Positions 2,115 through 54,400 of a stretch of DNA of 64,000 bases are shown here, piece by piece. The position numbers and the translations under genes are program-made. Every line of letters starts with the position of its first letter. Within the stretch, counting starts at the first letter, position 1. The stretch is from Mobula hypostoma (lineage: Eukaryota): assembly GCF_963921235.1 (NCBI RefSeq), contig NC_086108.1, forward strand, positions 48,424,001 through 48,488,000, in the 5' to 3' direction. The notes under the pieces were generated by a model that worked only from the letters and a program-made list of their open reading frames with translations, made no database searches and had not been told where the DNA came from.

Positions 2115-5100
2115 GTAAGATACTGTGGCACTAAATATAGAACTCATACTTTTGCTTGTATTAAGATAGTCAGATATTGCCCCCTGGTGGTTAAATTGAA
2201 ATAATAGCATAAATTCAGCATTATTTTGAGGAAAAGAATTGTTTTTATTCCCAGCTATTGTTCTCTCTGTTTACTTACGAGGGGTGATTGATAAATTCGT
2301 GGCCTGAGGTAGAAGGAGGCAATTTTAGAAAACCTAACATATTTTTATTTTTCAACATAGTCCCCTCCTACATTTACACACTTAGTCCAGTGATCGTGGA
2401 GCATACGGATCCCTTTTTTATAGAAGTCGGCGTCTTGGACCTCCAGAAAGAGCTCCACAGCAGGGGTGATTGATAAGTTTGTGGCCTAACGTAGAAGGAG
2501 CTGTTATTAACTTCAGACCTTCTGCATAATCACTCAAAGAGTTGAACTGCACGTGCATGTAACGAGAGCTGTATAAATCATCTCCTTCTACCTTACGCCA
2601 CAAACTTATCAATCACCCCTGCTGTGGACCATCTATTGGAGGTCCAAGACACCAACTTCTACAAAGAAGGGATCCGTATGCTCCACGACTGCTGGACTAA
2701 GTGTGTAAATGTAGGAGGGGACTATGTTGAAAAATAAATGTGCTAGGTTTTCTAAAATTGACTCTTTCTACCTTAGGCCACGAACTTATCAATCACCCCT
2801 CATACATTTCTGCGTAGATGTCTTAGGCACATATACTGTATATAGCTAGGGTGCCTAAGACTTTTGCACAGTACTGTATTTGTCAACGTAGGGTGGAGAG
2901 CGAGTTTGTAAATCTGGTGTAAGTAAGGGATGTTGGGAATGACGAGGGTGAAGTGCCGCAGGAGGGGTGTGGGACAGTTGGCAGAGACGAAGTGCCAGGG
3001 CAGGGTCTGGCATGGGTGCAGACACACCCAGCCCTGAGACACCAGGCCAAGGTAATTTGATTCCAAACAATTGGGTTTATTGATCATTACAGGATGTCCC
3101 TCTGGTGCTTCACGCTTCCTCCCCTCTCCCTTCCCCTTTTCCCAAACATTATTGTCCTCTCCCTGCCCCCTTCCCACTCTCAATGCGCCGTAGAGACCCA
3201 TATCAGAATCAGTCACACATGTCATGAGATACGTTTTCTCATGCAGCAGCAGTACAGGGCAGTGCATAAAGGTAATACGGTACTGTGCAAAAGTCTTAGG
3301 CAACCCAGCTCCCTCTTTCTCTCTCTGTCTCTCTCTCCCACCCCCTCACTCTCCCCCTCTCTCTCTCTCCCCCCCTCTCTCTCCCCCCTCTCCCCCTCTC
3401 TCTCCCCCTCTCTCACCCCTCTCTCTCTCCCCCTCTCTCTCTCTCCCCTCTCCCCTCTCTCCCCCTCTCTCTCCCCTCTCTCTCTCCCCCTCTCTCTCCC
3501 CCCTCTCTCTCTCTCTCCCCCTCTCTTCCCTCTCTCTTCCCTCTCTCTCTCCCCCCTCTCTCTCCCTCTCTCTCTCCCCTCTCTCTCTCCCCCTCACTCT
3601 CCCCCTCTCTCCCCCTCTCCCCCCTCTCCCCCCTCCCCCTCTCCCCCTCTCCCCTCTCTCCCCCTCTCTCCCCCCTCTCCCCTCTCTCCCCCTCTCTCCC
3701 CCTCTCTCTCCCCCCTCTCCCCCTCTCCCCCACTCTCTCCCCACTCTCTCCCCCTCTCTCTCCCTCTCTCTCTCTCCCTCTCTCTCTCCTCCTCTCTGTC
3801 TCCCCCCTCTCTCTCTCCCCCACTCTCTCTCCCCCTCTCTCTCTCTCATATATGTATGTATGTGCCTAAGACTTTTGCAGAGTACTGTACTTCCAGTAGA
3901 CCCAGTGAATGTCAGCATACCACTGATTTTACTTTCTTTTGGAATGGTTAAAATAGCTTTTGTGTAAATCAGTGCTAAAGCGTGTAAGATTGTTTCTTTT
4001 GGCACAGTAATACTATACAATATAGGAAACAAAGTACATTTGAACACAGTTTTTAATTTTGACTTAAAGGATTCAGTTGCTGCACTATTACAACAAAAGC
4101 AGAATTGCTGCAAATTCTTGGCAGGTCAGGCAGTATAGGTGGAGGTAGAAAGCGAATTAATGCTTCAGGTCAAGGACCTTTTGTTAGAATTCAGGTAATG
4201 GTGCTGAATCCATAAAGATCTTCTGACTAATTTTAAAGTTACCTGAAACAAATTATGTTGGAAGGGGTCTTTCTATTGGTTTTGACAACCTTCTGTTTCC
4301 TTGGGATATGGTGGTACCTTAAGCACATGACATCTTATTGTGTGACAGCTGCACTTGCCTGCAGTTTGCAAATGTTATTTTAACTTGCCTTATTGGAGCT
4401 GAATTCCTTACAAACGTGAACTGCAGTCCCTATAATTGAATTCCCAGTGTGAGTGGCTCCAAGAATTGGAGTACAGTGCGCAGACAGGAGAAAGGAAATT
4501 GTTTGCCACAAACCACAGGTAAGTTTCTCTTGCAATGCTGGCAGCACCGTCTGGGAGATCTGTCAAGTGTTCCTGGAGATAGCCAGACCAACTGAAGAGT
4601 TGCCAATCCGCTTTAACTCTTCTCAAAGACGGAATAAAGATGTGCCCTTGATGAACTTCAATCAAACAGAATTTTGTTCTATTTCTCGCACATTGGAATA
4701 AAAATTTGTATTGAGAGTAACTTCATGATGAATATACCACCGTTATTAACCTGTAATATCGATCATCTCTTAGTGATTTCACATTTATGGTTGACCACAG
4801 CAATCAGTAAGTCACTCCACTCCTCCAAAAGGGAAAAGAAATGGGAATTGCTTGGGCTACTTAATTGTGACTCTGAATGCAGGAGTAGGCTACCTAGTTC
4901 CTCCAACCTTCTATGCCATTCAATTTGATCATCTACTTCAATACCACATTCCTGTTCATGACAAAACATCTCCTCATACAGCAGTTCCTCAGGAATCAGT
5001 CTGGTGAACCTTTGCTGCACTCTCTCATTAGCCCTCTCCACCGCTGCTGCCTACCCAGCCAAGTACTTCCAGAATTTTCCAGTTTTATTTGTTCACTGAA

Positions 5101-8100
5101 AAACAAAATGCTGATAAAGTAACAACACATCAATTACTTTAAAAATACATTTTGTAGAATAAATCGATCTTTAATTGGTTTGAGTAGCAATAGGCATTCA
5201 TATTACTGACATTTTATAAAGTTTTACATGCTGTAACATAAAATGTTCAGAATGAAATTCTTAATTACTTTTCATTTTGAACTAATTCTACCCTTTATAT
5301 GGTTTTTTAATTACTTCTTGGTTGATCTTGTATGGATAGCTTTCATATTTACAACAGCAACACTTTCTGAAAGTTAAGGTATTCTTCACAATGTACAATC
5401 ATCTAAGCTGGATTCAACTGGTAAGTGATTCAGCAGTTCAATCATCAATAAGCTAAATTCATATTTTTATTAAAGACCACTGCTGTAACTTGCCTCGTAC
5501 ACGGCTTCTCACTACGTCAGAGAGGAATGGAGGGAAATCATCCACTAACCGGAGAAACTCCGGATGCAACGTACCTCTCCTGTCCTTATTAAAGACTAAC
5601 AAATGAGGAGGCATTTACTCCTCTTCCAACTCTTTAATCAGAATCAACTGATTTTAAATGAATGCAAATTGTTTGAATTTTCATCTTTCTATTATCATTT
5701 AACCCTAAAATGGACAATGGCTTCTGACAAGAGTACCAGTAAAATAACTTTCTATTGTGTTTTTTTTTCCTTCAGAAAATGCAGAGTCCTTGGAGATGCA
5801 CATTCTTTCTGGGGGCAGCAAACTGCAGATTGCTCGGTCACAGCTTGCTGACAGTGGCTCCTACACCTGTGTGGCAAGAAATGTGGAGGGGATGGCTCAC
5901 AAAACCTACATCCTGACAATTCAAGGTGCGCAAAAGCCAAGAGTCTAACTACTTTTCCTGCAACATACATCAAAGTTGCTGGTGAACGCAGCAGGCCAAG
6001 CAGCATCTATAGGAAGAGGTGCAGTTGACGTTTCAGGCCGAGACCCTACGTCAGGACTAACTGAAGGAAGAGTGAGTAAGGGATTTGAAAGTTGGAGGGG
6101 GAGGGGGAGATCCAAAATGATAGGAGAAGACAGGAGGGGGAGGGATGGAGCCAAGAGCTGGACAGGTGATACGAGAGGATCATGGGACAGGAGGTACGAG
6201 AAGAAAGACAGGGGGGGGGTTGACCCAGAGGATGGGCAAGAGGTATATTCAGAGGGACAGAGGGAGAAAAAGGAGAGTGAGAGAAAGAATGTGTGCATAA
6301 AAATGAGTAACAGATGGGGTACGAGGGGGAGGTAGGGCCTTAGCGGAAGTTAGAGAAGTCGATGTTCATGCCATCAGGTTGGAGGCTACCCAGACAGAAT
6401 ATAAGGTGTTGTTCCTCCAACCTGAGTGTGGCTTCATCTCCACAGTAGAGGAGGCCGTGGACAGACATGTCAGAATGGGAATGGGATGTGGAATTAAAAT
6501 GTGTGGCCACTGGGAGATCCTGCTTTCTCTGGCGGACAGAGCGTAGATGTTGAGCAAAGCGGTCTCCCAGTCTGCGTCGGGTCTCACCAATATATAAAAG
6601 GCCACATCGGGAGCACCGGACACAGTATATCACCCCAGTCGACTCACAGGTGAAGTGATGCCTCACCTGGAAGGACTGTTTGGGGCCCTGAATGGTGGTA
6701 AGGGAGGAAGTGTAAGGGCATGTGTAGCACTTGTTCCGCTTACACGGATAAGTGCCAGGAGGGAGATCAGTGGGGAGGGATGGGGGGGACGAATGGACAA
6801 GGGAGTTGTGTAGGGAGCGATCCCTGCGGAATGCAGAGAGAGTGGGGGAGGGAAAGATGTGCTTAGTGGTGGGATCCCGTTGGAGGTGGCGGAAGTTAGG
6901 GAGAATAATATGTTGGACCCGGAGGCTGGTGGGGTGGTAGGTGAGGACCAGGGGAACCCTATTCCTAGTGGGGTGGTGGGAGGATGGAGTGAGAGCAGAT
7001 GTACGTGAAATGGGGGAGATACGTTTAAGAGCAGAGTTGATAGTGGAGGAAGGGAAGCCCCTTTCTTTAAAAAAGGAAGACATCTCCCTCATCCTAGAAT
7101 GAAAAGCCTCATCCTGAGAGCAGATGCGGCGGAGACGGAGGAATTGCGAGAAGGGGATGGCGTTTTTGCAAGAGACAGGGTGAGAAGAGGAATAGTCCAG
7201 ATAGCTGTGAGAGTCAGTAGGCTTATAGTAGACATCAGTGGATAAGCTGTCTCCAGAGACAGAGACAGAAAGATCTAGAAAGGGGAGGGAGGTGTTGGAA
7301 ATGGACCAGGTAAACTTGAGGGCAGGGTGAAAGTTGGAGGCAAAGTTAATAAAGTGAACGAGCTCTGTATGCGTGCAGGAAGCAGCGCCAATGCAGTCGT
7401 CGATGTAGCAAAGGAAAAGTGGGGGACAGATACCAGAATAGGCACGGAACATAGATTGTTCCACAAACCCAACAAAAAGGCAGGCATAGCTAGGACCCAT
7501 ACTGGTGCCCATAGCTACACCTTTAGTTTGGAGGTCTCAAAGCTCTACGCTTCTTTTTGGATTCCAGACCTAATCAGTTCCCCTCTACCACCACTCTGCT
7601 CCGTCCAGCGGAATTAGTTCTTACTCTTAAAAATTTCTCCTTTGGCTCCTCCCACTTCCTCCAAACTAAAGGTGTAGCTATGGGCACCCGTATGGGTCCT
7701 AGCTATGCCTGCCTTTTTGTTGGGTTTGTGGAACAATCTATGTTCCGTGCCTATTCTGGTATCTGTCCCCCACTTTTCCTTCGCTACATCGACGACTGCA
7801 TTGGCGCTGCTTCCTGCACGCATACAGAACTCGTTCACTTTATTAACTTCGCCTCCAACTTTCACCCTGCCCTCAAGTTTACCTGGTCCATTTCCGACAC
7901 CTCCCTCCCCTTTCTAGATCTTTCTGTCTCTGTCTCTGGAGACAGCTTATCCACTGATGTCTACTATAAGCCTACTGACTCTCACAGCTATCTGGACTAT
8001 TCCTCTTCTCAACCTGTCTCTTGCAAAAACGCCATCCCCTTCTCGCAATTCCTCCGTCTCCACCGCATCTGCTCTCAGGATGAGGCTTTTCATTCCAGGA

Positions 8101-11100
8101 CGAGGGAGATGTCTTCCTTTTTTAAAGAAAGGGGCTTCCCTTCCTCCACTATCAACTCTGCTCTTAAACGTATCTCCCCCATTTCACGTACATCTGCTCT
8201 CACTCCATCCTCCCACCACCCCACTAGGAATAGGGTTCCCCTGGTCCTCACCTACCACCCCACCAGCCTCCGGGTCCAACATATTATTCTCCGTAACTTC
8301 CGCCACCTCCAACGGGATCCCACCACTAAGCACATCTTTCCCTCCCCCACTCTCTCTGCATTCCGCAGGGATCGCTCCCCACACAACTCCCTTGTCCATT
8401 CGTCCCCCCCCATCCCTCCCCACTGATCTCCCTCCTGGCACTTATCCGTGTAAGCGGAACAAGTGCTACACATGCCCTTACACTTCCTCCCTTACCACCA
8501 TTCAGGGCCCCAAACAGTCCTTCCAGTGAGGCATCACTTCACCTGTGAGTCGACTGGGGTGATATACTGTGTCCGGTGCTCCCGATGTGGCCTTTTATAT
8601 ATTGGTGAGACCCGACGCAGACTGGGAGACCGCTTTGCTCAACATCTACGCTCTGTCCGCCAGAGAAAGCAGGATCTCCCAGTGGCCACACATTTTAATT
8701 CCATATCCCATTCCCATTCTGACATGTCTGTCCACGGCCTCCTCTACTGTGGAGATGAAGCCACACTCAGGTTGGAGGAACAACACCTTATATTCCGTCT
8801 GGGTAGCCTCCAACCTGATGGCATGAACATCGACTTCTCTAACTTCCGCTAAGGCCCCACCTCCCCCTTGTACCCCATCTGTTACTCATTTTTATGCACA
8901 CATTCTTTCTCTCACTCTCCTTTTTCTCCCTCTGTCCCTCTGAATATACCTCTTGCCCATCCTCTGGGTCAACCCCCCCCTCTTGTCTTTCTTCCCGGAC
9001 CTCCTGTCCCATGATCCTCTCATATCCCCTTTTGCCTATCACCTGTCCAGCTCTCGGCTCTATCCCTTCCCCTCCTGTCTTCTCCTATCATTTTGGATCT
9101 CCCCCTCCCCCTCCAACTTTCAAATCCCTTACTTACTCTTCCTTCAGTTAGTCCTGACGAAGGTTCTCGGCCTGAAACGTCGACTGCACCTCTTCCTATA
9201 GATGCTGCTTGGCCTGCTGCGTTCACCAGCAACTTTGATGTATGTTGCTTGAATTTCCAGCATCTGCAGAATTCCTGTTGTTTGCGTTATAACTACTTTT
9301 CCTTCTGCTTTGAGCTTATCATTAGATCATAATATCAGTCTGGTTGCTGTCATAATCAATTTGCTTAGTTTGTGTGCATAACGAGGAAGAACGAAACAAA
9401 GGCAATTGTATAGCAAGTGCAAGAGCGAAGAACATACGAGAACCCTTCACCAACTTTCACCCTCCCAATCCTTTTCATGTTAATGTTAATAATGATCACA
9501 TAGAACAGCATCAGATTTAATAAAAATTATGGTTAATTGAACTTGCTCATGACATACTCCTGGCACCTAATTTCGTCCAGTTACCTTTTATCTGTTCAAT
9601 CCAAACCAGACAGATAACAATCAAAAATTTTAAGATCAGGCTCTGTTTTCACTACGTTTGCAGCATCCTTTAAACCTCCACCTCACCCCTACCCCACTCT
9701 ACCTTGACTTTCTTAAACTTTGAGCTTAGTTTCTCTGAGGTTGCTTTCATTATGTAAGCTCTAACTTCATAAAGTCCTAAAGAATAACCACCTGCCCCCA
9801 CCATTCCTCAGAGTCCGGTTCAGGTTTAATATCACTGACACACAGTATGTTGTGGTATTTGTTGTTTAATGCATCGTAATGCTTCTTACCTCATTCTACA
9901 ACCTATGCACCTTCCAAATTATTTGCTCCTAGTTTTAAAAACCTCTCTGGAACTGGATCATCCTGACTCAGCATCCAAGCTCATCCCAGACTTTCATCTC
10001 TCACTGCACACTTTCCCCTCTCCATCCTCATTTCTGGTGTTTGCTTTGTAACAATCTTGATTAAATCTGCTGTTGCTCAGCATTTGCCTGGCTGCTTCTG
10101 TTAAAAATACTACACGGTAGAATGTAGGTGTTGATTCTGTAACTTTTCAAAAGAGGAATAATGCTACCTTGTTCTAGTCTAGATGTCTTTTCTCCTGAGA
10201 ATTCATTAATGTGACCATCTGAAGTAATAACAATGCTTAGGCAACAAAGGGAAAGAATCAGGGAACAATGACTTGACACACCTCAGTGGAGTAGGTACAA
10301 AAGAAGGAGATGTAATTATCCAAAGAACAGTTTGGTCCCTGAATCTCTCTAATTCATTCCAATTTATTCCAACACATTGAAAAACTGGAAAACTTGAGAA
10401 CATGAAGTAGTAGAAAGAAAATCTCCTACTGAACAGTTAAAAAGAAATGTAAACACGAGGAAATCTGCAGATGCTGGAAATTCAAGCGACACACACAAAA
10501 TGCTGGTGAACGCAGCAGGCCAGGCAGCATCTATGGGAAGAGGTACAGCCGACGTTTCAGGCCGAGAACCTTCATCAGGACTAACTGAAAGAAGAGATAG
10601 TGAGAGTTTCAGTTAGTCCAGACGAAGGGTCTTGGCCCAAAACGTCGACTGTACCCCTTCCTATAGATGCTGCCTGGTCTGCTGCATTCCACCAGTATTT
10701 TGTGTGTATTGCTTAAAAAGAAACATAGTGTTTTCCATAGCAAATACATTTATATTTGTTAAAAAAAACTAAAATCTGATGGCTCCCACATCCATAATTG
10801 AGGGACTTGAAGGGAAATTAGAAACAATTGGACTGAGTGCTTATTTGGAGTAAAAGCTGTAAATCAAATATGATAACAGAATAGAGCTAATGCTGATATT
10901 GCTTAGAACCCCAGGTCAAAGAAGTTTTGCAAAACATTGCATATCCTCCATGTATTTTCAAGATTATAGAGAGATTAGTGGGAAGGTTGGATCGATTGTT
11001 ACAATTTGTGAAAGTTTCAAATACCAGCTCGAAATAAAATAAACCAAGAATAATCAAGCAGATTCTTCCCACCAAGGAATTATAGACCTGTGCAGAACAT

Positions 11101-23100: not shown

Positions 23101-26100
23101 ACTGCTGCCTAGGATTTATTTTATTGAACAAGGGTAATATCGTGTGTCTCATGGGTTGAATTTATTATGTGTGTGTATTTGATTTAGTGGGTATGGCAGA
23201 TCGATATGTGAACAGGGCAGCACAGTACGGACCCTTTGGCCCGTGATGTTGTGCCAGACATCAGTCTAACCATTCCCGCCGACACAGTCCGTAACTTTCC
23301 ATTTGTCTTTCATCCATGTGCCTAACCAAGACTCTCAAATGTCCCTAATATATCAGCTTCTACTACCATTCCTGGCAGTGCCTTCAAGGCACCCACAACT
23401 CTTTGTGTAAAGAAAACCCTACCTCTATGATATCTCCCCAAAACTTTCTTCCACTCACCTTAAAAGTATGTCCTCTGGTATTAGCCATGGCCATCCTGAG
23501 GAAGAGGCACTGGCTGTCCACTCTATTTATGAGCATGCGTATAAAGAACATGTTTGCAATGTTGAATGAGACAAGCAGGGATAAACTCCCGCACAGACTA
23601 CACATTCACCGTAACATACATCAAAGTTGCTGGTGAACGCAGCAGGCCAAGCAGCATGCTGCTTGGCCTGCTGCGTTCACCAGCAACTTTGATGTATGTT
23701 GCTTGAATTTCCAGCATCTGCAGAATTCCTGTTGTTTACACATTCACCGTAGTTATTGCATGAGCAGAGTCAAAACGATTCATTACTTTCCATTGTTTTC
23801 TTTGCCGAACGCAGTCCCTCCAAGGATGGATGGCGCTGGTAGCATCAAAGACCTCACGATAGTGAAGGGGAATCCAGCAGCCCTAACATGCATCACTGAT
23901 GGAATACCAATGCCAACATTAGCCTGGCTGAAAGAAACACAACCTCTTAAGCTGAGTCCTCACATGACAGTTGGAAACCAGGGAATGTCACTGCAGATTT
24001 CTGCAGCGGAGGTGGAAGACAGTGGAACATACACCTGTGTGGCTGTCAGTGAAGCTGGGGAGGTCAGCAAACACTTCAGCTTGAAAGTGCTTGGTAAGTC
24101 AGACATAACACACCACCACGAATGAAGGAAAGCTCTGGCAAATAAGTCTGGGCACTGGCCATGGGCAATTGATGGAGGCAGCCATCTCCTAGGCAGAGAG
24201 ACATCAGAAGTTTGTTCTACGGAAAAATCCCCATGGTCAGAGTTCACAGATATATCATTGATAGTTGCCATTGCATCATCTGCTGCTGCAGAAATGGCAA
24301 GTGGTAAATTTTGACACTAAAGCCAGTCACAGTGGTAAGACAATGCATGAAGATTAACTGGCCTACAGAGTGAAAAGTTAAAAACATATGACTAGTTTTA
24401 TTATCGGTTTTGATTTTTTAACTTATTTGTTTAAGAAACTTAGTTTCCATGCATTGGATCACTTGCTTCACTCTTTTACAGAATTTCAAGAAAACTCGTT
24501 TAAGTTTTATTTTATGGCATATTGCAGATCCACCTCATATTAATGGCTCTGATTTTGCGGAGGAAACCTCTGTGGTGGTGAACAATCCCTTAGAACTTCA
24601 GTGTGTTGCCACGGGCATCCCAGCTCCCAAATTGACCTGGATTAAGGATGGACGACCACTGCCTCAGACAGACACCATTCACGTTCTCCGTGGTGGCGAA
24701 GTGTTGAGAATAGAGAACGCTCAGGTGTGGTGCAAGCTCCTATGCAAATTGGCTCTTTCTCTGTAATAGTTGCAAACAGTGTGGAGACATGTGATGATTG
24801 CATATTTCATTGCAGGCTTTGCTTTAACACTAGAGCTTGCAGAAGGAATGCATTAATAGACCTGCTTTAAATAATCTTTATCACTGTAATTAAATAAGTT
24901 ATCGTCAAATGTTTTAGTGTTCACAGAGAGATACTAATACTATTTGCGCCATTGAGGAAATAAAACTTACAAATCCCGATAGTTTTTAAAATCCGGCATA
25001 TTAGATACTTCTGGAAATATTTCTGAAGGTCCAAAAAGGAGGTGCAATTATACACTGGTTTTCTCAGACACGATGTGTATTTTGGAAAGTCTTCCCAAAC
25101 AATGAGCTGCTCCATCAGCAGGAGGAGTATTCCCGCTTCTCAAACCACAGCCTACTGTCACATTGCCCTAGATGTCAGGCACAGTCCTCCTTCCACCCAT
25201 CTACTGTCAAATGGACCCCTTATCTCTTCCAGCGCACAGCACCGCTCCCCTAACCCCTGCCACACGATGTTAGGAAGCAGACTGTCTTCAGTAGCAGGAG
25301 TGGGTTTCACTTGGGGGAAGTGCCTAGTTAGGCGCAATATTTCAAGGTAGGGCTTTCCCCTGCTGGTGATCCCCATCTGAGAAGCACTGGGTGTGCCTGA
25401 GAAAAGGAAAATTTAATAGAACCCTTGAGGGCAAGACTGGAGAAAATTTGACGGAGGGCTAGAGACCAACAAAGGGAGGGGTCTGAGACCAAGTGATCAC
25501 TGGTATCTCTCTCCTCCTCCACTTTGTCTCTCCCGTCCTCTCTCCACTCCTCTCCCCCTCTCTCCCTCCTTTCTCTCTCTCCCTCCTTTCTCTCTCTCCC
25601 TCCTTTCTCTCTCTCCCTCCTTTCTCTCTCTCCCTCCTTTCTCTCTCTCCCTCTTTTCTCTCTTTCCCTCTCTCTCTCTCTCTTCTACATCTCTCCACAC
25701 CCCCTCTCTCTCGATCCAAACATTAAATATTCCTTTACCCACTCTATTTCTCCATTTCACCCCACCCCTCATCAATTATTCTCTCTGATCTGAGCCAGAC
25801 CTGCCCATGAAGATCCTTCCTCTTGTAATTCCCGTGCCTATATTCACTCCCACTGTTTCATTAGTAAGGAGCCTGGTGGGATAAAAAGCCATGTCCTGCT
25901 CCTACTCTCTGCTGTCTATGATTCTAAGGATAGGCCATGCCTTGTAGTGTGTAGTTCTCAGCCACATGGATATTGAACAGTTTATGGCAGGATGCAGGAT
26001 TTTTAAAGAATTGTTTTCTAAAACTGAAGTCCTCAAAAATGTAATGGTTTATACATTGGGTTTTATAACCTATGTGGTAGAATTGCTAATGTACCTCTGT

Positions 26101-36400: not shown

Positions 36401-39400
36401 TTTATCTAGCTAGTTTATGTCAACCCTTCATTGGATCTGACCCAAGGCTACTTTAGCTCATTAATCTTCCACCAAAGGAGAATTTGTGCCTTATGTCACC
36501 TTTTTCTCTCCCAGAGCCAGACCCATTCAAATCAGTTCTGGCCGCCTCAAGCCAGTTGCTGAGCTCAGGTTACTTTAGTGCACAGATAGCTCTTTTCAGC
36601 TCTACTCACCTGGCCAACAGAATTACACGAAGGCCAGGCCGTATACGGTGACATAATTACTCCCTGAAAGACTGTGACCAAACTAATTAGCTTTTAGTAA
36701 CAACTGTGATATCAAGCTTTTTTCCAGATTTGTAACAATACAATTTAACTTGTCAAATTCTTAATCCACTATGATGGGATTTGAGCCTGGCCCTTCCGAA
36801 ATGATAGCTGAGACTTTTGGATTACCATTTGGGAGGCACGACCATGTTCCTGCCATCCACAGCCCATTGCCTCTACTTAAATGCTCACATCGTGTTGAAA
36901 ACCACCTGCTTAAATCTATATCCTGCTAGTCTTTTGTACATCTAGCTGGACAGCAGTTGTTAACCAAAGACCTTATGTGGGATTGTAAACTCTGCAAAAT
37001 GTTAAACCAGAAAATGCACAGTTGCTGCTGCAATCTACAAGTAACTAATTGGTCCTGAAGCACAGGTACTAATGAAAAGACAAAAGAGAAGCCCTATTTA
37101 GATGCACTTCCTGTTTCTTTTTTTTAAACCAGGTATTCCTTCTCAGAGGATGGTTCATTGCATATTGGCTCAGCTCAAGTAACAGATACAGGCCGTTATC
37201 TATGTATGGCAACCAATGCAGCAGGAACAGCTCGTAAGAGAATTGATGTACAGATCTATGGTAAATGCATTTCAAATCATTGGCATAAATTGCTGATAGC
37301 ATCTTGGATCCTATCTGATTTGCTGTTAAAGGTCTTGAACCTATGCACAGGGAGGTTTCACTTTCAAAATAGAAGGCTGCTTCTTTTAAAAACGCAAACA
37401 ACAGGAATTCTGCAGATGCTGGAAATTCAAGCAACACACATCAAAGTTGCTGGTGAACGCAGCAGGCCAGGCAGCATCTCTAGGAAGAGGTACAGTTGAC
37501 GTTTCAGGCCGAGACCCTTCGTCAGGACTAACTGAAGGAAGAGTGAGTAAGGGATTTGAAAGTTGGAGGGGGAGGGGCAGATCCAAAATGATAGGAGAAG
37601 ACAGGAGGGGGAGGGATGGAGCCAAGAGCTGGACAGGTGATTGGCAAAAGGGATATGAGAGGATCATGGGACAGGAGGTCTGGGAAGAAAGACAAGGTGG
37701 GAGGGGAACCCAGAGGATGGGCAAAGGGTATATTCAGAGGGACAGAGGGAGAAAAGGGAGAGTGCGAGAAAGAATGTGTGTATATAAATAAATAACAGAT
37801 GGGGTACGAGGGGGAGGTGGGCATTAGCGGAAGTTAGAGAAGTCGATGTTCATGCCATCAGGTTGGAGGCTACCCAGACGGAATATAAGGTGTTGTTCCT
37901 CCAACCTGAGTGTGGCTTCATCTTTACAGTAGAGGAGGCCGTGGATAGACATGTCAGAATGGGAATGGGATGTGGAATTAAAATGTGTGGCCGCTCTGTC
38001 CGCCAGAGAAAGCAGGATCTCCCAGTGGCCACACATTTTAATTCCATATCCCATTCCCATTCTGACATGTCTATCCACGGCCTCCTCTACTGTAAAGATG
38101 AAGCCACACTCAGGTTGGAGGAACAACACCTTATATTCCGTCTGGGTAGCCTCCAACCTGATGGCATGAACATCGACTTCTCTAACCCGCTAATGCCCCA
38201 CCTCCCCCTCGTACCCCATCTGTTATTTATTTATATACACACATTCTTTCTCGCACTCTCCCTTTTCTCCCTCTGTCCCTCTGAATATACCCCTTGCCCA
38301 TCCTCTGGGTTCCCCCCTCCTTGTCTTTCTTCCCGGACCTCCTGTCCCATGATCCTCTCGTATCCCTTTTGTCAATCACCTGTCCAGCTCTTGGCTCTAT
38401 CCCTCCCCCTCCTGTCTTCTCCTATCATTTTGGATCTCCCCCTCCCCCTCCAACTTTCAAATCCCTTACTCACTCTTCCTTCAGTTAGTCCTGACGAAGG
38501 GTCTCGGCCTGAAACGTTGACTGTACCTCTTCCTAGAGATGCCGCCTGGCCGGCTGCGTTCACAGGCTGCTTCTTTTGAAGTCACATCAGCTATAAGTGT
38601 CTTCAGTTAAGTTATTTTATTAGAGTTACAGCTTGGAACAAGTCCTAATGGACCTTTGAGCTGCACCAGCCAACAACCCACCGATTTAATCGTAGGCTGA
38701 TCACGGGACAATTTGCAATGCCTGATTAGCTTACTAACCGGTAAATCTTTTGATTGTGGGAGGAAACTGGAGCACCCTGGGAAAAACCCATGCACACATA
38801 GGAAGGAACGTACAAACTCACTTACAGAGGACGCCGGAACTGCGCTCTGAACTCCAACGCCCCGAGCTGCTGTGCGAACCACTAAACCACTGTGACACCC
38901 CATTGTAAAATCAGTTGATAATGTGAGGCAGAATCCCATGCAATGCACATTTTATTTTATCTTTGTCTGCTTTTAGATTAACATAGAAATGCTAAAAATA
39001 GGAGCAGGAATAGAGCATTTGTCCCCCAGCACTGCTCTGTCATCTCAATACCACATTTCTGCTCTCACAGGGAAGATCAACTTCTGTATTTTGTACTAGA
39101 ACAGGCTGAGGAATCTCAGGAGACCTGCTACTTTCCAAATAATTGTAAACAATTAAAAACATTGGGAAGAATTTTTCACATGAGCAAATAAACTTTACTT
39201 CTTGAATAGAATGAGTTTCCTAAGCCCCTTAATTGCAATACCACCCTTATCATGTGTATTTCTTTGTTAAATTTGATTTTTGTTCATCAGGCACTTCAGA
39301 CCCATTTACGAATGATGCTTCATTTTCTGGCACATAGTTTACACTGTTCCTATAAAAGGTCACTAAGATGAAAGGTTATCATTTTTCTCTCTCCACAAAT

Positions 39401-42400: not shown

Positions 42401-45400
42401 TTAATAACTAGAGTAGTTGCGGGTTAATTGCAACACATCAGGATTAGAACATTTTGGCACAGTTAAGCCGCTGCCATAATTGGTCGAAGTCTCATGGAAA
42501 CAGTTAAAATGGTATAAAAGGACAAACTGAGTAGTAAATTATGTATTAAATTAAATAATGGAACAAATTAGAACACTACCAATAGTACTACAGTATAAAA
42601 CTGTGTATTAGTGCCTAATAGTAATCAATAGAAGAATTCATCCCTAATGCACAATGAGCAAAATCATTACGGACACCAAGTGCAGATAATGGATTGACTT
42701 CATACAATGTTACCAATGACTGCATTCTCCAAATACTCACTTTAATTGTAACATTCAGCATGACTGTTGATGCCTTCAAATTTTTTATAGTTCCTAACTT
42801 GTTGAAGTAGTGAAATCATTTAATTTTCACTCCTGGACGATTCTGGTATCTCCAAGCCTGAATGTTTGAAAGGACAGTGAGAAAAACAGTTCTGAATTGT
42901 CTTGCTGCTTATTCCTCGTCAACTGTCACTGACAAAAAAAATCACTTTTTTAATGCACAATACACACATTACTGATGCCATTAAACAACTGATCACTCTA
43001 AGTGCAGTGTAGCATCTAACAGCCACAGAAGAGCACGTGACTGGTGCTAGTTAGAACTTATACGGCAACAGTCTCCAGTGGCAAAGTGTCCCAAATAAAT
43101 GAAAGGAATCCCTGCAATTTTCTCAATTAGTTTTTGTCCTTTAAGAGTTGTCCCAAATAAGTGACTGCTCCAATTAGCCAATGGCCAATTAAGTGGAATC
43201 CACTGTATTACCCATAGTAATATTAATGGAACCACAATTTATTAAAGTAAGTTAGTCAATTCTTTACTCTGAAAAAAATATATTGTGAGTTTTGATATCA
43301 ATCCAGATGTACATGAAGGGGGAATGGCCACTCTCCACTTCCCTTCACAAATACTGCTGAATTTATATTCCTCTGTACACTCATGTATCAGGTCACATCA
43401 CCTGTTGCATAAAATATGCAGAGTCCCATTGATACAAATAACCTCTCAGTATGGAATTCCATCTGTTGCTATTGGAATCATTTACCTCAGTTAATAACTT
43501 GCTGCGATTTAATGTTTATTGCTATACTTAGAAAAATGGTTGGTTAATTAGACCATAAAACCAAAAGATAGAGCTGCAGAATCGAAGCGGCTCTGCTATT
43601 TCATCATGGCTGTTCCAATTTTCCTCTCAGCCCCAATCTCCTGCCTTCTCCCTGTATCCCTTCATGCCCTGACCAATCAAGGATCTATCAACTTCTGCCT
43701 TAAATATACATAAAGACTTGGCCTCCACCTCTGCCTGTGGCAAATAATTCCACAGATTCAACACTCTCTGGCTAAGGAAATTCCTCCTCATCTCCGTTAT
43801 AAAAGGACACCCCTCTATTTTAAGGGTGCGGACCTAGACTCTCCCACCATAGGAAACATCCTCACCACATCCACTCAATCAAAGCCTTTCACTATTCCAA
43901 AAATGCTGGTGAACGCAGCAGGCCAGGCAGCATCCATAGGAAGAGGTACAGTCGACATTTTGGGCGAGACCCTTCGTCAGGACTAACAAATTTCCTCATG
44001 TTTGCCTTTCACTATTCAATAGGTTTCAATGAGGTTACCCCTCGTTCTTCTGAATTTTAGTGAATACAGGCCCAGAGCCATCAAACACTCTTCATATGAC
44101 AAGACATTCAATCATGAAATCATTTTCATGAACCTCCTTTGAACCCTCTCCAGTTTCAGCACATCCTTTCTAAGATAAGAAGCCCAGACCTGCTCACAAT
44201 ACTCCAAGCGAGGCCTCACCAGTGCTTTATAAAGTTGCAACATTATATCCTGTCTTTTATATTCTAGTCCTCTTGAAATGAATGCTAACATTGCATTTGC
44301 CTTTCTCACCACAGACTCAATGTGCAAATTAACCTCTAGGGAAGCATGCACAAGGACTCCCAAGTCCCTTTGGACCTCAGTATTTTGAATTTTCACTTCA
44401 TTTAGAAAATAGTCAAACCTTTCTTTTCTCCTACCAAGGTGCATGACCATACACTTCCCGACAGTGTATTCCATCCGACATTTCTTTGCCCATTCTCCTA
44501 ATCTGTCTAAGTCCTTTTGTAGAAAAATAAGTACATTCCCCTCCACCTCTCTTCATATTGTCTGCAACTTTTACAACAAAGCCATCAATTCCGTTATCCG
44601 AATCACTGCCATACAACATAAAAAGAATTGGTCCCAACATATACCCCTGTGGAACACCAGTATTCACCAGCAGCCAGCCAGAAAGGGCTCCCTTTATTCC
44701 TTCTCTTTGCCTCCTGCCAATCAGGCACTGCTTTATCCATGCAAGAAACTTCCTTGTAATGCCTCATATATGGCACCTTATCAAAGGCCTTCTGAAAATC
44801 CAAGTACGTTACATCAACTGATTCTCCTTTGTCTATCCTGCTTGTTATTTCTTCAAAGAATTCCAACAAATTTGTCAGGCAAGATTTTCCCTTAAGGAAA
44901 TCATGCTGACTATGGCCTAATTTATCATGTGCCTCCAAGTACCCTGAGACCTCATCCTTAATAATCGACTCCAATATCTTCCCAACCATTGAGGTCAGAC
45001 TAACTGGCCCATTGTTTCCTTTCTTCTGACTTTCTCCCTTCTTGAAAAGTGGAGTGACATTTGCAATTTTCCTGTCTTCTGGAACCATTGCAGAATCTAA
45101 TGATTCTTGAAAGATCATTACCGATGTCTCCATGATCTCTTCAGCCACCTCTTTCACAACTCTGGGGTGTACACCATCTGGTCCAGGTGACTTATCTACC
45201 TCCAAATCTTTCAATTTCCCAAGAACCTTCTCTCTAATTATGGTAACTTCACACACATGCCCGCTGACTCCTGGAACTTCCACCATACTGCTAATGTTTT
45301 TCACAGTGAAAACTGATGAAAAATACTTATTCAGTTTGTCCACCATTTCATTGTCCCTCATTACTACCTCTCCAGCACCTTTCTTCAGCAGTCCAATATC

Positions 45401-48400: not shown

Positions 48401-51400
48401 TGAAGCTGTTCATCCTTTCCACCACTGACCTTTCAGTGAGGATTGGTGCAGCTCCCCTGACTTCCCCTGTTTGAAGTCTACAATCAGTTTTTGCTGACAA
48501 TGAATTCAAGGTTAATATTGCGATACCACTGGGAATGAGCTATCAGCCAATATTAAGCATAAAGTTTATACATGGAGAATATATTGATTGGCTACATCAT
48601 AACCTAGTATGGAAACACCAAGGCTTTTGAATGGAAGATCATATAAATTGAGCATGCGGAATACTAAGGACATTAAGGATATTTTCCTATATAAAGACAC
48701 ACCGCAGAGATTAAGTCAGCCTGCAAGTAAAAATATATTTTCATTGACTTTAAATTTTAAGGAAGATTTTATCCATTTTAATTATTTTGTTACTTTTCTG
48801 ATTACTTTAACATGTAGGCACCTTTTGGCTTGTGACAGATCTTTATTATTGTACAACAAGTAAACTATAAATATATTATTATTGTACAGTTAGCTTTTCT
48901 TTCACCACAACTTCTTGTTAATTCAGGAACAATTGAGATCAGTGCTGCCCAGCTCAATCACACAGGAAGATACACATGTATTGCAAAGAATGCTGCTGGC
49001 TCTGCACGTAGGCAAGTCAATCTCCGTGTGCAAGGTAGGTAGTTATATTTACACAATTTTATTTCCATGATCAGGAATTAAAACACCATTCATTGTGAAG
49101 TAAATTACTTTTGTTTTCATCACTATTCCTTCCCAATATCACAGTCATGCCAATTTACTCAATCATTCAAGGGACTATTTAATCAGTTGTATAAGAATCT
49201 CCAGTCACCGGGAGTTTATTGCATTGCTTTTCTTTGTTGGATTGCATAATTTTGAAATCAAACATATTGTAAGCATATAGCTCTTCAAGAAAGAACAACT
49301 ATTTGCAACTCCAGTTGGTTTTAGACTGAGCTAATAGTCACATTTCAGAACACTCTCTACTTTTACTTACTCTTAGGACTCTTAACTTTGGCCTTAGTTT
49401 TATCTACTATTGAAAAGTAGGTTTAACTTGTTCAACCAAATTCTGGCCATCATACCTCCTCCCAGTCTGGAAGCGAGATTGTCAGAGATACTCTCACCCA
49501 GGTTCTTACTCATACAGTCTCAATCAGCGCTTATGTTTCATGGCTTTCAATAGGTACAAGTTGAAATTTCAAATCCTCATCCTAGCCTTCAAATCTGTAT
49601 GTGATATCACTCCTGGCCTTTTTTTCAGTAACCTCTAGCTTTACAAACCTTGTAGATATTTGTGCTCCTCCAAATCTGATCTCCAGATCAAACCCACCAT
49701 TGGCAGCTTTACTCTGAGCTGCCAACACTTTGGAATTCTCTGTGAAACTGCTCCCCTATCCATCTTTCCTCCTTTTAAGATTCTCCTTGAGAGGTGATCT
49801 TAATGAAACACACAAGACTCCTGCTGACATGAAAGGATAAATATCAAAATGTTGTCACAATTGAGGAACTCAAACAATGGGACATAGTTAGAAGATTAGT
49901 CGTTGGTCATTTAAAAACTGAGGTGTGGAGGAATTTGTTCTTGCAGAGCATGAAGAACCTCTGGAATTCTCTACCCTGGAGGTTTGAAGAGGCTAGATCT
50001 TTTAGGATATGTAAAAGAGAAGTAGATAAAATTTTGAACAGTCAGGGAAGAGAGGCTGATGGGGAACTGACACAAAGGAGACATGTGAGTACAGGGCAGG
50101 CCTGAGGGGCCAAAACACCTCTGCATACTGCTGTATTCTTATGTTCTGAAGTTTTATATCCATCTTATTTCCCTGTCCAGTTGCTTCACTCCAATGGCTT
50201 TCGATTTCTTTACACTTCCCAGTACCATTTCATTTATTTTATATTTCTTTGTTGCATTTAGACTAATTACGTTTTTCTGCACAGTTGACTAGATAATTTT
50301 TTCTCCTTCCTCAGTCAAAAGTTTTCCCTCTCCTATGAAGCACACAGCTGAACTCCCCCCTCTGATCCCAGCTCTCATCCGTGCCGGATCTTTACCATCC
50401 CCTCCGACCTTCAACTGTCTGAGGCAGAACGCTCTGTCCTCAGTAAGGGCCTCACTTTTGTCCCCCTTCGCCCACACCTCAGCGAGTTCCGTGTTCGCCA
50501 TGATGCGGAACTCTTCTTCTGCCGTCTCCGTCTCCAAGCCTACTTCTTGGCAAGGACTCTTCCACCCCCACCGATGATCCCTTCTCCCGCCTTCAACCCT
50601 CCTCCTCTTCATGGACACCCCTACTCTGGTCTTCTGCCTGCCCTGGATCTCTTTATTGCTAACTGCGAACGGGACATCAACCGTCTCGACTTCACCACAC
50701 CTTGTTCCAATTCCAACCTCACTCCTTCCGAACACTCTGCTCTCCACTCCCTCCGCACTAATCCTAACCTTATTATTAAACCCGCCGATAAAGGGGGTGC
50801 TGTTGTAGTCTGGCGCACTGACCTCTACCTTGCCGAGACACAGCGACAACTCACAGATACCTCCTCTTATTTGCCCCTCGATCGTGACCCCACTAAGGAG
50901 CACTAGGCCATTGTCTCCCACACCATCGCCGACTTTATCCGCCCAGGGGATCTCCCACCCTCTGCTACCAACCTTATAGTTCCCACACCTCGCACTTCCT
51001 GTTTCTACCTCCCACCCAAGATCCACAAACCTGCCTGTCCTGGCAGACCTATTGTCTCAGCTTGCTCCTGCCCCACCAAACTCGTTTCTGCATACCTCGA
51101 CACGGTTTTATCCCCCCTTGTTCAATCCCTTCCTACCTATGTTTGTGACACTTCTCACACTCTTAAACTTTTCGATGATTTTAAGTTCCCTGGCCCCCAC
51201 CGCTTTATTTTCATCATAGATGTCCAGTCCTTATATACTTCCATCCCCCATCAGGAAGGTCTCAAACCTCTCCGCTTCTTTTTGGATTCCAGACCTAATC
51301 AGTTCCCCTCTACCACCACTCTGCTCCATCTAGTGGAATTAGTCCTTACTCTTAATAATTTCTCCTTTGGCTCCTCCCACTTCCTCCAAACTAAAGGTGT

Positions 51401-54400
51401 AGCTATGGGCACCCGCATGGGTCTGAGCTATGCCTGCCTTTTTGTTGGCTTTGTGGAACAATCTATGTTCCATGCCTATTCTGGTATCTGTCCCCCACTT
51501 TTCCTTCGCTACATCGACGACTGCATTGGCGCTGCTTCCTGCACGCATGCAGAGCTCGTTGACTTTATTAACTTTGCCTCCAACTTTCACCCTGCCCTCA
51601 AGTTTACCTGGTCCATTTCCGACACCTCCCTCCCCTTTCTAGATCTTTCTGTCTCTATCTCTGGAGACAGCTTATCTACTGATGTCTGCTATAAGCCTAC
51701 TGACTCTCACAGCTTTCTGGACTATGCCTCTTCTCACCCTATCTCTTGCAAAAATGCCATCCCCTTCTCGCAATTCCTCCGTCTCCGCCGCATCTGTTCT
51801 CAGGATCAGGCTTTTCATTCCAGGACGAGGGAGATGTCCTCCTTTTTTAAAGAAAGGGGCTTCCCTTCCTCCACCATCAATTCTGCCCTCAAACGCATCT
51901 CCCCCATTTCACACACATCTGCTCTCACTCCATCCTCCCGCCACCCCACTAGGAATAGGGTTCCCCTGGTCCTCACCTACCACCCCACCAGCCTCCAGGT
52001 CCAACATATTATTCTCCGTAACTTCCGCCACCTCCAACGAGATCCCACCACTAAGCACATCTTTCCCTCCCCATCGATTGGGGAGCTTTCCACAGATTGC
52101 TCCCTACGCGACTCCTTTGTCCATTCGTCCCCCCCATCCCTCCCCATCGATCTCCCTCCTGGCACTTATCCTTGTAAGCAGAATAAGTGCTACACATGCC
52201 CTTACACTTCCTCCCTTACCACCATTCAGGGCCCCAGACAATCCTTCCAGGTGAGGCGACACTTCACCTGTGAGTCGGCTGGGGTGATATACTGCATCCG
52301 GTGCTCCCGATGTGGCCTTCTATATATTGGCGAGACCCGACGTAGACTGGGAGATAGTTTTGCTGAACACCTACGGTCTGTCCACCAGAGAAAGCAGGAT
52401 CTCCCAGTGGCCACACAATTTAATTCCACATCCCATTCCCATTCTGACATGTCTATCCACGGCCTCCTCTACTGTAAAGATGAAGCCACACTCAGGTTGG
52501 AGGAACAACACCTTATATTCCATCTGGGTAGCCTTCAACCTGATGCCATGAACATTGACTTCTCTAACTTCAGCTAATGCCCCACCTCTCCCTCCTACCC
52601 CATCCATTATTTATATACACACACGTTCTTTCTCTCACTCTCCTTTTTCTCCTTCTGTCCCTCTGACTATACCCCTTGCCCATCCTCTGGGATCCCCCCC
52701 CCCACTTTTCCTTCTCCCTGGGCCTCCTGTCCCATGATCCTCTCATATCCCTTTTGCCAATCACCTGTCCAGCTCTTGGCTCCATCCCTCCCCCTCCTGT
52801 CTTCTCCTATCATTTTGGATCTCCCCCTCCCCCTCCCACTTTCAAATCTCTTACTCACTCTTCCTTCAGTTAGTCCTGACGAAGGGTCTCGGCCTGAAAC
52901 ATCGATTGTACCTCTTCCTAGAGATGCTGCCTAGCCTGCTGCGTTCACCAGCAACTTTGATGTGTGTAGCTAAACTTTGGGTCAGCTACAGATTTCTCGA
53001 TCGTGCCCCCTGCATATACCTCTCCCCACAATAAAAGTCAAGAGACTAGTTTTGAGACCTGTAGAACCCACTGGTAACAATCCTCCGGTCACAAAAGCAC
53101 AACTCAACCACTATCCTAAGCAGAGTTTGAATCCAATTTCCCATGAATCCTATGCATTTCAACTTTTTTGCCCACTCTGCCATGCTGACCTTAGTCAAAA
53201 ACTTCACTGAAATCCGTTTGACCTACTACAGTCATTCCTCTCATCAACTCTACTTCTTACTTTCTGAAAAAAAATCAGTCAAGTTGGTCTTTATTCTCTG
53301 GAGCACAGGTGAATGAGGGGAAATCATATTGAGGTATACAAAATTATGGGGGTTATAGGAAGGGTAAATGTTTGCAGGTTAAGTAGAACTGGAATTAGAA
53401 AGCATAGGTTTAGGGTGAAAAGTGAAATGTATAAGGGAAATATGATGGGGAGCTTCTTCACTCAGAGGATTGTGTGAGGATGGAACAAGCTGTCAGCATA
53501 AGTGATAGATGTGAGGTTAATTGTAATATTTAAGAGAAGTTTGGGTAGGTACATGGACGAGAGGGTTATGGAGGGATATGATCCAGTTGCAGATAGAGGA
53601 AACTAGGCAGAAGACCAGGCTGGCATGGAGTAGATTCAAGTACGTTTATTATCAAGGAACGTAAAAATTATACAACCTTGAGATTTGCTTGCTCACAGGT
53701 AGCCACAGAGCAAGAAACACAAAAACATAGAAACATAGAAACATAGAAACATAGAAAATAGGTGCAGGAGTAGGCCATTCGGCCCTTCGAGCCTGCACCG
53801 CCATTTATTATGATCATGGCTGATCATCCAACTCAGAACCCAGCCTTCCCTCCATACCCCCTGACCCCTGTAGCCACAAGGGCCATATCTAACTTCCTTT
53901 TAAACATAGCTAATGAACTGGCCTCAACAGTTTGCTGTGGCAGAGAATTCCACAGATTCACCACTCTCTGTGTGAAGAAGTTTTTCCTAACCTCGGTCCT
54001 AAAAGGCTTCCCCTCTATCCTCAAACTGTGACCCCTCGTTCTAGACCTCCCCAACATCGGGAACAATCTTCCCGCATCTAGCCTGTCCAATCCCTTTAGG
54101 ATCTTATACGTTTCAATCAGATCCCCCCTCAATCTTCTAAATTCCAACGAGTACAAGCCCAGTTCATCCAGTCTTTCTTCATATGAAAGACCTGCCATCC
54201 CAGGAATCAATCTGTTGAACCTTCTTTGTACTCCCTCTATGGCAAAGATGTCTTTCCTCAGATTAGGGGACCAAAACTGCACACAATACTCCAGGTGTGG
54301 TCTCACCAAGGCCTTGTACAACTGCAGTAGTACCTCCCTGCTCCTGTACTCGAATCCTCTCGCTATAAATGCCAGCATACCATTCGCCTTTTTCACCGCC

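Follow-up and report, generated by a model that had tools for sequence, protein, structure and literature searches.

A palindromic Penelope-like element inside a single target site duplication in Mobula hypostoma, and how it may have inserted

One locus in the genome of Mobula hypostoma raises the question of how two near-identical pieces of a retroelement came to lie head-to-head, with their 3' ends facing outward, inside a single target site duplication (TSD). The locus lies in a stretch of 64,000 nucleotides (contig NC_086108.1, positions 48,424,001 to 48,488,000 of the forward strand; hereafter the window), and the insert, 3,330 bp at 5960-9289, consists of two arms, each a 5'-truncated piece of a Penelope-like element (PLE), between exact 14-bp repeats (Table 1). 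It is very probably a real structure, the product of one event, and an instance of a known PLE layout. The original prediction, made from the letters of this stretch, implied that such an arrangement is rare. That implication has to be given up: the passages of Craig et al. 2021 (PMC8557442) and Arkhipova et al. 2013 (PMC3846280) that deal with unit structure describe an adjacent inverted 5'-truncated copy and a one-sided tail of 30-40 nt as frequent or typical in PLEs, and the layout is found five times within these 64 kb. The focal object is thus of little weight in itself, being a dead copy with a documented PLE layout, and what it offers is a modest mechanistic clue.

The anatomy of the insert follows the original prediction closely. 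In a blastn comparison, 5960-7534 on the minus strand and 7658-9248 on the plus strand are 97.2% identical, with four gap openings, and a repeat search gives an arm separation of 123 nt, matching the near-perfect reverse complements some 123 bp apart that had been described. The spacer is ordinary element sequence that runs on into the right arm (7532-9249 matches 51257-52971, in a longer copy of the family, at 92.2%). The AGG at which the arms had been proposed to join is indeed common to both, and on either side of it the neighbouring bases are not those that the element normally has there; before the AGG, the 50-53 kb copy reads CAGGA and the left arm TTTGG. The predicted TSD word, TAACTACTTTTCCT, is present at 5946-5959 and 9290-9303 and nowhere else in the window, and among 3,000 random pairs of 40-nt segments just one pair had a common exact word of at least 14 nt and three a word of at least 11 nt. 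One TSD surrounds the unit, none lies inside it, and the layout recurs in all five exact-TSD units of the window, all of which agrees with the single insertion event first suggested. The ends of the unit are asymmetric, the last ~40 nt being present in the right arm only.

Table 1. Positions within the window of the focal unit, its parts and related features
Feature	Position	Strand	Remarks
Host exon, part of Ig I-set domain	5776..5925	+	Pfam I-set E 1.5e-6; AG and GT borders
Left TSD	5946..5959		14 bp; identical at 9290-9303
Left arm	5960..7534	-	tail-less, 5'-truncated PLE; corresponds to 7658-9248 of right arm
AGG microhomology at central junction	7532..7534		common to both arms
Right arm	7532..9289	+	tailed, 5'-truncated PLE; RT C-terminal part, CX4CxxC linker, GIY-YIG, 3' UTR
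Spacer	7535..7657	+	123 bp unpaired; RT region; extra 5' reach of right arm
Putative minimal type I hammerhead-like motif	9150..9184	+	read by eye, against description in PMC6765202
Predicted RNA stem-loop	9227..9250	+	tail-less arms end in or beside it
Tail	9249..9289	+	39-41 nt, one end only; absent from left arm
Right TSD	9290..9303		exact partner of 5946-5959
U2	10437..10723		265-bp two-arm insert, other subfamily; 11-bp TSD; tail on left arm
U3	23599..23751		123-bp perfect mini-palindrome; 15-bp TSD; tail on right arm
U4	37374..38577		1,176-bp two-arm insert; 14-bp TSD; tail on left arm
U5	43884..44017		106-bp insert; 14-bp TSD; ~90-nt tail-less arm and ~17-nt tail-only arm
Longer, older family copy	50352..52971	+	reference/outgroup; 3' end tail-less

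The focal arms retain the reverse transcriptase (RT) only in the part starting at about GVAMG. They share 92% identity with the copy at 50-53 kb, in which the motifs ADKG, DVQSLYT, GVAMG and RYIDD can be read (50.3-52.6 kb) and Pfam RVT_1 is matched at E 5.2e-5, below its cut-off. An open frame of 398 aa in the left arm (6340-7536) has RYIDD altered to CYIDD and a GIY-YIG match that is below cut-off (E 5.2e-4). In the right arm the GIY-YIG domain scores 23.3 bits against a cut-off of 22.6, with two CCHH cysteines between GIY and YIG and the histidines later; together with the RT motifs, this domain bears out the Penelope identity first proposed. Such cysteines are described in the relevant parts of PMC8557442 as a feature of endonuclease-bearing PLEs, and a CX2-5CxxC linker between RT and endonuclease as a property of Neptune and Nematis that is absent in Penelope and Poseidon. 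The linker here is of the CX2-5CxxC type (the left arm reads CKRNKCYTC and the 51-kb copy CKQNKCYTC), and its presence speaks against the Penelope/Poseidon clade; by its motifs, the family is an endonuclease-bearing PLE with a Neptune/Nematis-type linker. A DNA transposon with terminal inverted repeats is ruled out, since the repeats are RT and endonuclease coding sequence and the ends are asymmetric. An active element is ruled out as well. Both arms are without the RT front and carry lesions, in the right arm two one-base frameshifts near 8404 and 8525, and to judge by these frames they are broken, dead copies. A PDB search with a 556-aa ORF gave no match at E ≤ 1. Full-length PLE copies are known to lie in partial tandem with a direct pseudo-LTR; within the 64-kb window no recognisable 5' end was seen in any copy, and around the 50-53 kb copy no TSD, left border or inverted partner was seen, the best 8-mers being at chance level.

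Four further exact-TSD units in the window, with inserts of 106 to 1,176 bp, have the layout of the focal unit (U1). The right arm of U3 is identical to the focal right arm at 82 of 82 positions. In U4, blastn matches 37995-37391 to element positions 8681-9288 and 37992-38563 to element positions 8649-9226, the tail-less arm extending beyond the tailed one by 32 nt on the 5' side. The two arms of U5 have no sequence in common; its 17-mer agrees with the U2 tail at 15 of 17 positions, and five of its seven non-self matches in the window at 13/17 or better are tails. The tail is one-sided in 5/5 of the exact-TSD units, an outcome with a probability of ~0.03 if each end chose its start independently at even odds, in a count that omits the loci without an exact TSD (59356-59575, 40.7-41.4 kb, 14642-14692 with 16763-16803, 559-757, 1313-1343 and the 50-53 kb copy). 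Among these other loci, 59356-59575 has two arms, a right-hand tail and a best TSD match of 8/10; 40.7-41.4 kb is an old copy, probably with two arms; 14642-14692 and 16763-16803 are one locus split by a LINE; a single arm is seen at 559-757 and a tail alone at 1313-1343.

These units invite comparison with the canonical PLE unit, as set out in passages of Craig et al. 2021 (PMC8557442) and for Pen2a_Av in PMC3846280. There, as here, an inverted 5'-truncated neighbour stands head-to-head at the 5' end, inverted repeats flank the whole unit inside one TSD, and a tail of 30-40 bp is found at one end only. The focal unit differs in that both arms (1.58 and 1.76 kb) are truncated within RT and nearly equal in length, so that nearly all of it is palindrome and a direct pseudo-LTR upstream is missing. 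Its TSD is also longer, at 14 bp, than the 8-10 bp of the rotifer PLE examples given in the same two papers. Unlike those of Neptune/Nematis-type PLEs, the targets in this window are no microsatellites, and the TSDs of the exact-TSD units are 57-91% AT.

The 3' end calls for one correction. The left end was predicted to start about 40 nt inside the complete terminus of the right arm, and this stands; the terminus itself had been placed too early, for two bases (TA) stand between ...TTTGCGT and the right TSD. Because of this TA, the left arm ends 39-41 nt before the element terminus. A tail of that length agrees with the published PLE tail of 30-40 bp, which makes the offset between the two ends an ordinary PLE feature. 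Across U1 to U5 the tail-less ends fall at element positions 9248, 9248, 9245, 9226 and ~9238. The stem-loop at this place is a prediction only, none of six 3'-end folds (z -0.78 to +0.48; 9195-9289, z -0.55) being better than shuffles. A minimal hammerhead ribozyme in the terminal repeat is a feature of endonuclease-bearing PLEs. The putative hammerhead-like motif upstream comprises a stem I of AGTC/GACT, CTGACGA, a stem II, GAAAC and a palindromic ACGT, with a putative cut after GTC. In the left arm this motif is altered in core and stem, at the positions equivalent to 9160 and 9182. None of the four Rfam matches in 5900-11000 was a hammerhead; all lay far below the gathering score and are explained by the palindromes. 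Scans for the tail pattern found no loci in metagenome contigs and none in viral contigs.

The arm alignment contains 26 substitutions in 1,574 columns (1.65%) and four gap events, including the loss of 14 nt from the left arm. With the 51-kb copy as outgroup (7.9% from each focal arm), 12 substitutions are private to the left arm and 14 to the right. In 111 columns the arms agree with each other and differ from the 51-kb copy, and THTEL, SVSVSG, FAQHL and CGDEATL, the variants from which a common source had been predicted, are found in both arms and are absent from the 50.9-52.6 kb ORF. Transitions account for 20 of the 26 differences, and 10 are of CpG type, though CpG makes up just 90 of 1,591 positions. 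The alleles common to both arms are mostly missing from the family contigs of run X1, that is, rare in the family: at 7824, 7836, 8171 and 8640 the other letter has ~99.7%, 94%, 98% and 97% of the depth summed over the contigs listed, which are part of the whole, such depths being no copy numbers. Since the differences are evenly split and CpG-rich, and rare alleles are common to the arms, the pattern fits one source followed by separate ageing in place. Inverted arms can undergo gene conversion, and the common rare alleles could also have arisen in that way. A comparison over 515 common columns gives 15 differences between the two arms of U1, 12 between those of U4 and 27-30 between arms of different units, and a five-sequence tree splits the U1 and U4 arms by unit with a bootstrap of 100.

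Related genomes bear on the history of the site. In a 926-nt contig of organism B the alignment begins exactly at 9290, with 389 unaligned letters before it; in a contig of organism F it begins at 9292, and a contig of organism A runs from 9265 across the right junction. Matches that start at the TSD without element sequence indicate that the site is likely empty in organisms B and F, as had been expected of relatives. The flank differs from organism B at 20 of 997 letters (2.0%), just above the arm divergence, which is what an insertion after the split from B would give. Run X14 (organism E) leaves the flank uncovered and is thus uninformative on the site.

How, then, might such units form? 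The route that we consider rather probable is that both 3' ends of the cut target primed reverse transcription on element RNA. The GIY-YIG endonuclease would make a cut with a 14-nt stagger; one target end would start at an outer site on the RNA and so acquire the tail, and the other at an inner site in the stem-loop. Synthesis of the two cDNAs would break off early, at 7532 and 7658 of the element; annealing of the cDNA 3' ends at AGG/CCT, followed by fill-in and ligation, would give the palindrome and the TSD, after which the arms would age separately. The parts of Frangieh et al. 2024 (PMC11167929) that concern PAc (Poseidon of Anolis carolinensis) report that the protein of this lizard PLE acts on both strands in vitro, cutting each and extending it, that a dimer is predicted, and that two RNA start sites, one tail apart, bound the tail. 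The focal ends likewise lie one tail apart near a predicted stem-loop, 3' of a putative hammerhead-like motif. That said, PAc belongs to the Poseidon clade whereas the focal element has a Neptune/Nematis-type linker. According to the main text of the PAc study, top and bottom strands did not apparently differ in where synthesis started; it contains neither a model of head-to-head products nor a coupling of tail and no tail.

The two-ended priming of the original prediction is the leading mechanism by virtue of PMC11167929, in the parts just cited, and of U4 and U5, but not by virtue of the focal unit that prompted it. By itself, that unit fits a fold-back equally well, its tailed arm being the longer and AGG serving either route: a tail-primed cDNA would fold at AGG/CCT, extend itself, stop or be cut ~40 nt short, and join the second target end. 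A variant of this has been published, in that the relevant passages of Arkhipova et al. 2013 (PMC3846280) trace palindromic junctions to self-priming, with an antisense strand as template. The fold-back accounts for same-source alleles and for a one-sided tail in 5/5 units without extra assumptions, and the longer tailed arm of U1 and the perfect palindrome of U3 suit it; we nonetheless hold it to be rather unlikely. The ends without a tail lie close together at a second site, and in vitro work identifies this as an RNA start site (PMC11167929). In U4 and U5 neither arm copies the other, because the tail-less arm of U4 is the longer at the centre and the arms of U5 do not overlap, and these two units lean towards two primers. 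A fold-back can be reconciled with both given later arm loss, by deletions at the hairpin centre. Two separate events, in which a second copy inserted beside or into the first and gene conversion later made the arms alike, are improbable. Such conversion is possible between inverted arms, and PLEs are reported, in passages of PMC6765202, to insert into or beside existing PLE copies; however, a single TSD encloses the whole unit with none inside, the geometry is fixed in 5/5 exact-TSD units, those of 106 and 123 bp included, and, with the site likely empty in organism B, a flank divergence of 2.0% allows hardly any time in addition to the 1.65% that separates the arms. Least probable is an artefact, in which mis-assembly or a chimeric fold-back read produced the palindrome. 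The arms of a chimera would be identical, and these differ at 26 sites and four indels that are private in the ratio 12/14 and CpG-enriched; the flanks are different sequences with only the TSD in common, the ends differ by a tail as in published PLEs, and the right junction is present on a run X1 contig that is 2/595 letters off the window. On the other side, the outside data for the focal site are contigs rather than long reads, with part of the pieces listed, and neither the central nor the left junction was seen among the pieces listed; assemblies are known to have difficulty with structures of this kind (PMC8557442).

In L1 twin priming, the second primer lands internally, and the cDNAs are joined through a microhomology within a single TSD. 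Ostertag and Kazazian reportedly described in 2001 how both 3' ends of the target serve as primers on the RNA in this process. The two-primer route proposed here resembles it in the two priming 3' ends, the microhomology join and the one TSD. An L1-type inversion does not describe the focal unit: the inverted L1 piece comes from another part of the RNA, whereas the two focal arms are copies of one 1.6-kb stretch at the 3' end (element 7658-9248), with no poly(A).

On the two-primer route, a tail that is one-sided in 5/5 exact-TSD units means that the two ends must be coupled, which counts against that route in that the PAc study offers no such coupling. A tentative possibility, which we put forward with less confidence than two-ended priming itself, is that PLE integration is obligately two-ended on a single RNA, the RTs of a dimer working at the inner and the outer site and the outer one displacing the first cDNA. 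If true, one step would yield one-sided tails, same-source arms and head-to-head palindromes, by a retrotransposition route distinct from that of L1 or R2 and readable from many such units in this genome. Such a model was not found stated in the literature searched, in so far as those sources were accessible, and older PLE papers may hold it; records on Penelope with twin priming offered nothing on PLE mechanism in their titles and opening abstract lines, and PMC9977147 and bioRxiv 10.64898/2026.07.22.740005 held no relevant passage. Passages of PMC8557442 and PMC3846280 call the formation of inverted units and one-sided tails in PLEs open, and the units of this window are therefore useful as a small natural test bed, in which the identity of the longer arm and the overlap between arms separate two primers from a fold-back.

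The insertion may also matter to its host. The TSD begins 20 nt past the last base of the Ig I-set exon, and the focal unit would thus lie 20 nt inside an intron of a + strand Ig-repeat gene. Because a palindromic unit sits in an intron, the host pre-mRNA would carry ~1.6 kb of double-stranded RNA beside a splice donor, which would be a likely target of editing or small-RNA processing.

A self-comparison of the window with blastn recovered two inverted arms, 5960-7534 on the minus strand and 7658-9248, at 97.2% identity, and a repeat search placed them 123 nt apart. The layout of the original prediction for 5946-9303 is borne out, including a 3-nt overlap and a 14-bp target-site duplication (TSD) around the 3,330-bp insert. 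The match between 7532-9249 and 51257-52971, in a longer family copy, runs without a break, so the spacer is element sequence that extends the right arm. The arms share AGG at 7532-7534. The window contains the 14-mer TAACTACTTTTCCT twice, starting at 5946 and again at 9290; in a control with 3,000 random pairings of 40-nt segments, 1 pair had a word of at least 14 nt in common. The right arm terminates in ...TTTGCGTTA, and the left-arm end falls 39-41 nt short of that terminus, lacking what is here called the tail.

Penelope-like units and neighbouring features (window positions)
Feature	Position	Strand	Description
Focal TSDs	5946-5959, 9290-9303		
Focal left arm	5960-7534	-	tail-less
Focal spacer	7535-7657		
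Focal right arm	7532-9289	+	tail at 9249-9289
U2	10448-10712		outward-facing two-arm insert, exact 11-bp TSD
U3	23614-23736 (with TSDs 23599-23751)		outward-facing two-arm insert, exact 15-bp TSD
U4	37388-38563		outward-facing two-arm insert, exact 14-bp TSD
U5	43898-44003 (with TSDs 43884-44017)		outward-facing two-arm insert, exact 14-bp TSD
51-kb copy	50352-52971	+	longest family copy, 3' end at tail-less site
Ig-domain exons	5776-5925, ~23.8-24.1 kb, 24.5-24.7 kb, 34.5 kb, 37.1-37.3 kb, 62.5-62.8 kb	+	Pfam I-set matches in four
Young LINE	53833-56976	-	uninterrupted 1,047-aa frame, endonuclease and RT domains
Related LINE copies	~15.0-16.6 kb, 44.1-46.3 kb		
Older-subfamily PLE 3' end	14642-14692, 16763-16803	-	interrupted by the LINE copy at 15-16.7 kb
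Inverted repeat	2344-2738		unrelated; 160-nt arms, 90%, 75-nt spacer
Transposase-like frames	19265-21070	-	broken; resemble DNA-transposon transposase

Pfam places a GIY-YIG domain slightly above cut-off in the right arm and below it in the left, and gives a weak RVT_1 match in the longer copy (50.9-52.6 kb), where DKG, DVQSLYT, GVAMG, RYIDD, a CX4CxxC linker and IYCxRC..YIGET can be read. By the sequence features described by Craig et al. 2021 (PMC8557442), the family is classed as an endonuclease-bearing Penelope-like element (PLE) of the Neptune/Nematis rather than the Penelope/Poseidon type. A candidate minimal hammerhead-like motif was picked out by eye at 9150-9184 against the description in PMC6765202; Rfam reported no hammerhead there. 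Both focal arms begin within RT and carry lesions, CYIDD in the left and two one-base frameshifts in the right. In several copies one frame stays open across the 3' UTR, hammerhead and tail (9015-9289, 37386-37733 on the minus strand, 37788-38579 and 52578-52934), which may mean that, as in other PLEs, the terminal repeat contains the start of the ORF, or may be a by-product of C/T-rich composition. Neither an inverted tailed partner nor a TSD was found left of the 51-kb copy, which may be a later-truncated copy or a one-armed insertion.

Aligned over 1,574 columns, the arms show 26 differences plus 4 indels. With the 51-kb copy as reference, the left arm has 12 changes of its own and the right arm 14, and the two have 111 in common. 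Transitions account for 20 of the 26 differences and CpG-type changes for 10, CpG making up 90 of 1,591 positions. Identical arms would be expected from a read folded back on itself or from a collapsed assembly, so this divergence counts against an artefact, which we consider very improbable. Over 515 common columns the arms differ at 15 positions within the focal unit and 12 within U4, against 27-30 between units, in agreement with the earlier proposal that both arms derive from the same source. Two separate events followed by gene conversion between the arms seem improbable.

Contigs from 4 of 22 sequencing runs were compared with 7500-10300. The family is highly abundant, with 301,708 matching records in X1, a run of organism A, and summed X1 depth, which is not copy number, climbs about 15-fold toward the 3' end. 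Among the variant rows listed (40 of 642), the letter common to both arms at 7824, 7836, 8171 and 8640 is absent from about 94-99.7% of X1 depth. One X1 contig matches 9265-9859 with 2 differences and so places the right junction in organism A, with just 25 letters on the element side and from a run that may be kin of the assembly source; the central and left junctions were absent among the contig pieces listed. The original prediction expected an empty site in a related species, and the alignments go part of the way: a 926-nt contig of organism B begins to align exactly at 9290, behind 389 unaligned letters, and one of organism F begins at 9292 and continues unaligned. From these starts we infer that both behave as empty sites at the focal insertion. 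Organism B has 20 differences over 997 letters of flank, slightly above the 1.65% inter-arm difference; X14, a run of organism E, has no cover over the flank.

All five units with exact TSDs in the window (focal and U2-U5) have a tail on a single arm, a count that omits six further family fragments without exact TSDs; the clearest of these, 59356-59575, has the same polarity. Tail-less ends lie at positions 9226-9248 in right-arm numbering, inside or next to a predicted stem-loop whose folding is not better than that of shuffled sequences. U3 is a 123-bp perfect mini-palindrome, identical to the focal right arm at 82 of 82 positions, and therefore looks like a very short product of the same source lineage. 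By blastn, the tail-less arm of U4 covers element positions 8649-9226 and the tailed arm 8681-9288, so that each has sequence absent from the other. The 106-bp insert of U5, the most informative unit for mechanism, joins about 9147-9238 of the element to some 17 nt of tail (15/17 against the U2 tail; elsewhere in the window it has 7 matches of 13/17 or better, 5 of them to tails), and its arms thus have no sequence in common.

The focal structure is real, and its layout is one already described for PLE insertions, here in a further host. PMC3846280 shows units of this layout within a single TSD, names head-to-head as the commonest orientation, and proposes that an antisense template is used for self-priming; the focal unit is a large, tidy example. 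PMC11167929 reports that a lizard PLE protein, predicted to dimerize, cuts and extends both target strands and uses two adjacent RNA start sites whose spacing equals the tail length; the two strands did not evidently differ in the start site used.

Two-ended priming, as originally proposed, is the explanation we favor, with some reserve. A staggered cut of 14 nt would leave two 3' ends that each begin cDNA, one from the outer site and the other from the inner, and the truncated cDNAs would join by annealing at AGG/CCT. The focal unit alone would look the same had a single cDNA turned at AGG/CCT and copied itself, and support for two-ended priming comes instead from U4 and U5: with each U4 arm holding sequence the other lacks, and no overlap in U5, neither arm looks like a copy of its partner. 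Later deletion of the hairpin center could reconcile both units with a fold-back, which we regard as a less likely but serious alternative. The strictly one-sided tails mean that simple two-ended priming needs coupling between the ends, and the likeness of the strands in vitro (PMC11167929) also counts against the simple form. One candidate is that both primings take place on a single RNA and that the outer one displaces the cDNA begun at the inner site; this would explain the coupling, the shared alleles and why either arm can be longer.

The focal unit begins 20 nt past an exon coding part of an Ig I-set domain, with more Ig exons downstream on the plus strand; these exons are part of a single large host gene that is probably hemicentin-1. 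Three of the insertions, the focal one, U3 and U4, have an exon no more than about 100 nt away. Among neighboring repeats, we take the young LINE to be CR1-like and the transposase-like frames to be hAT-like, and the short inverted repeat is possibly a DNA-transposon remnant.
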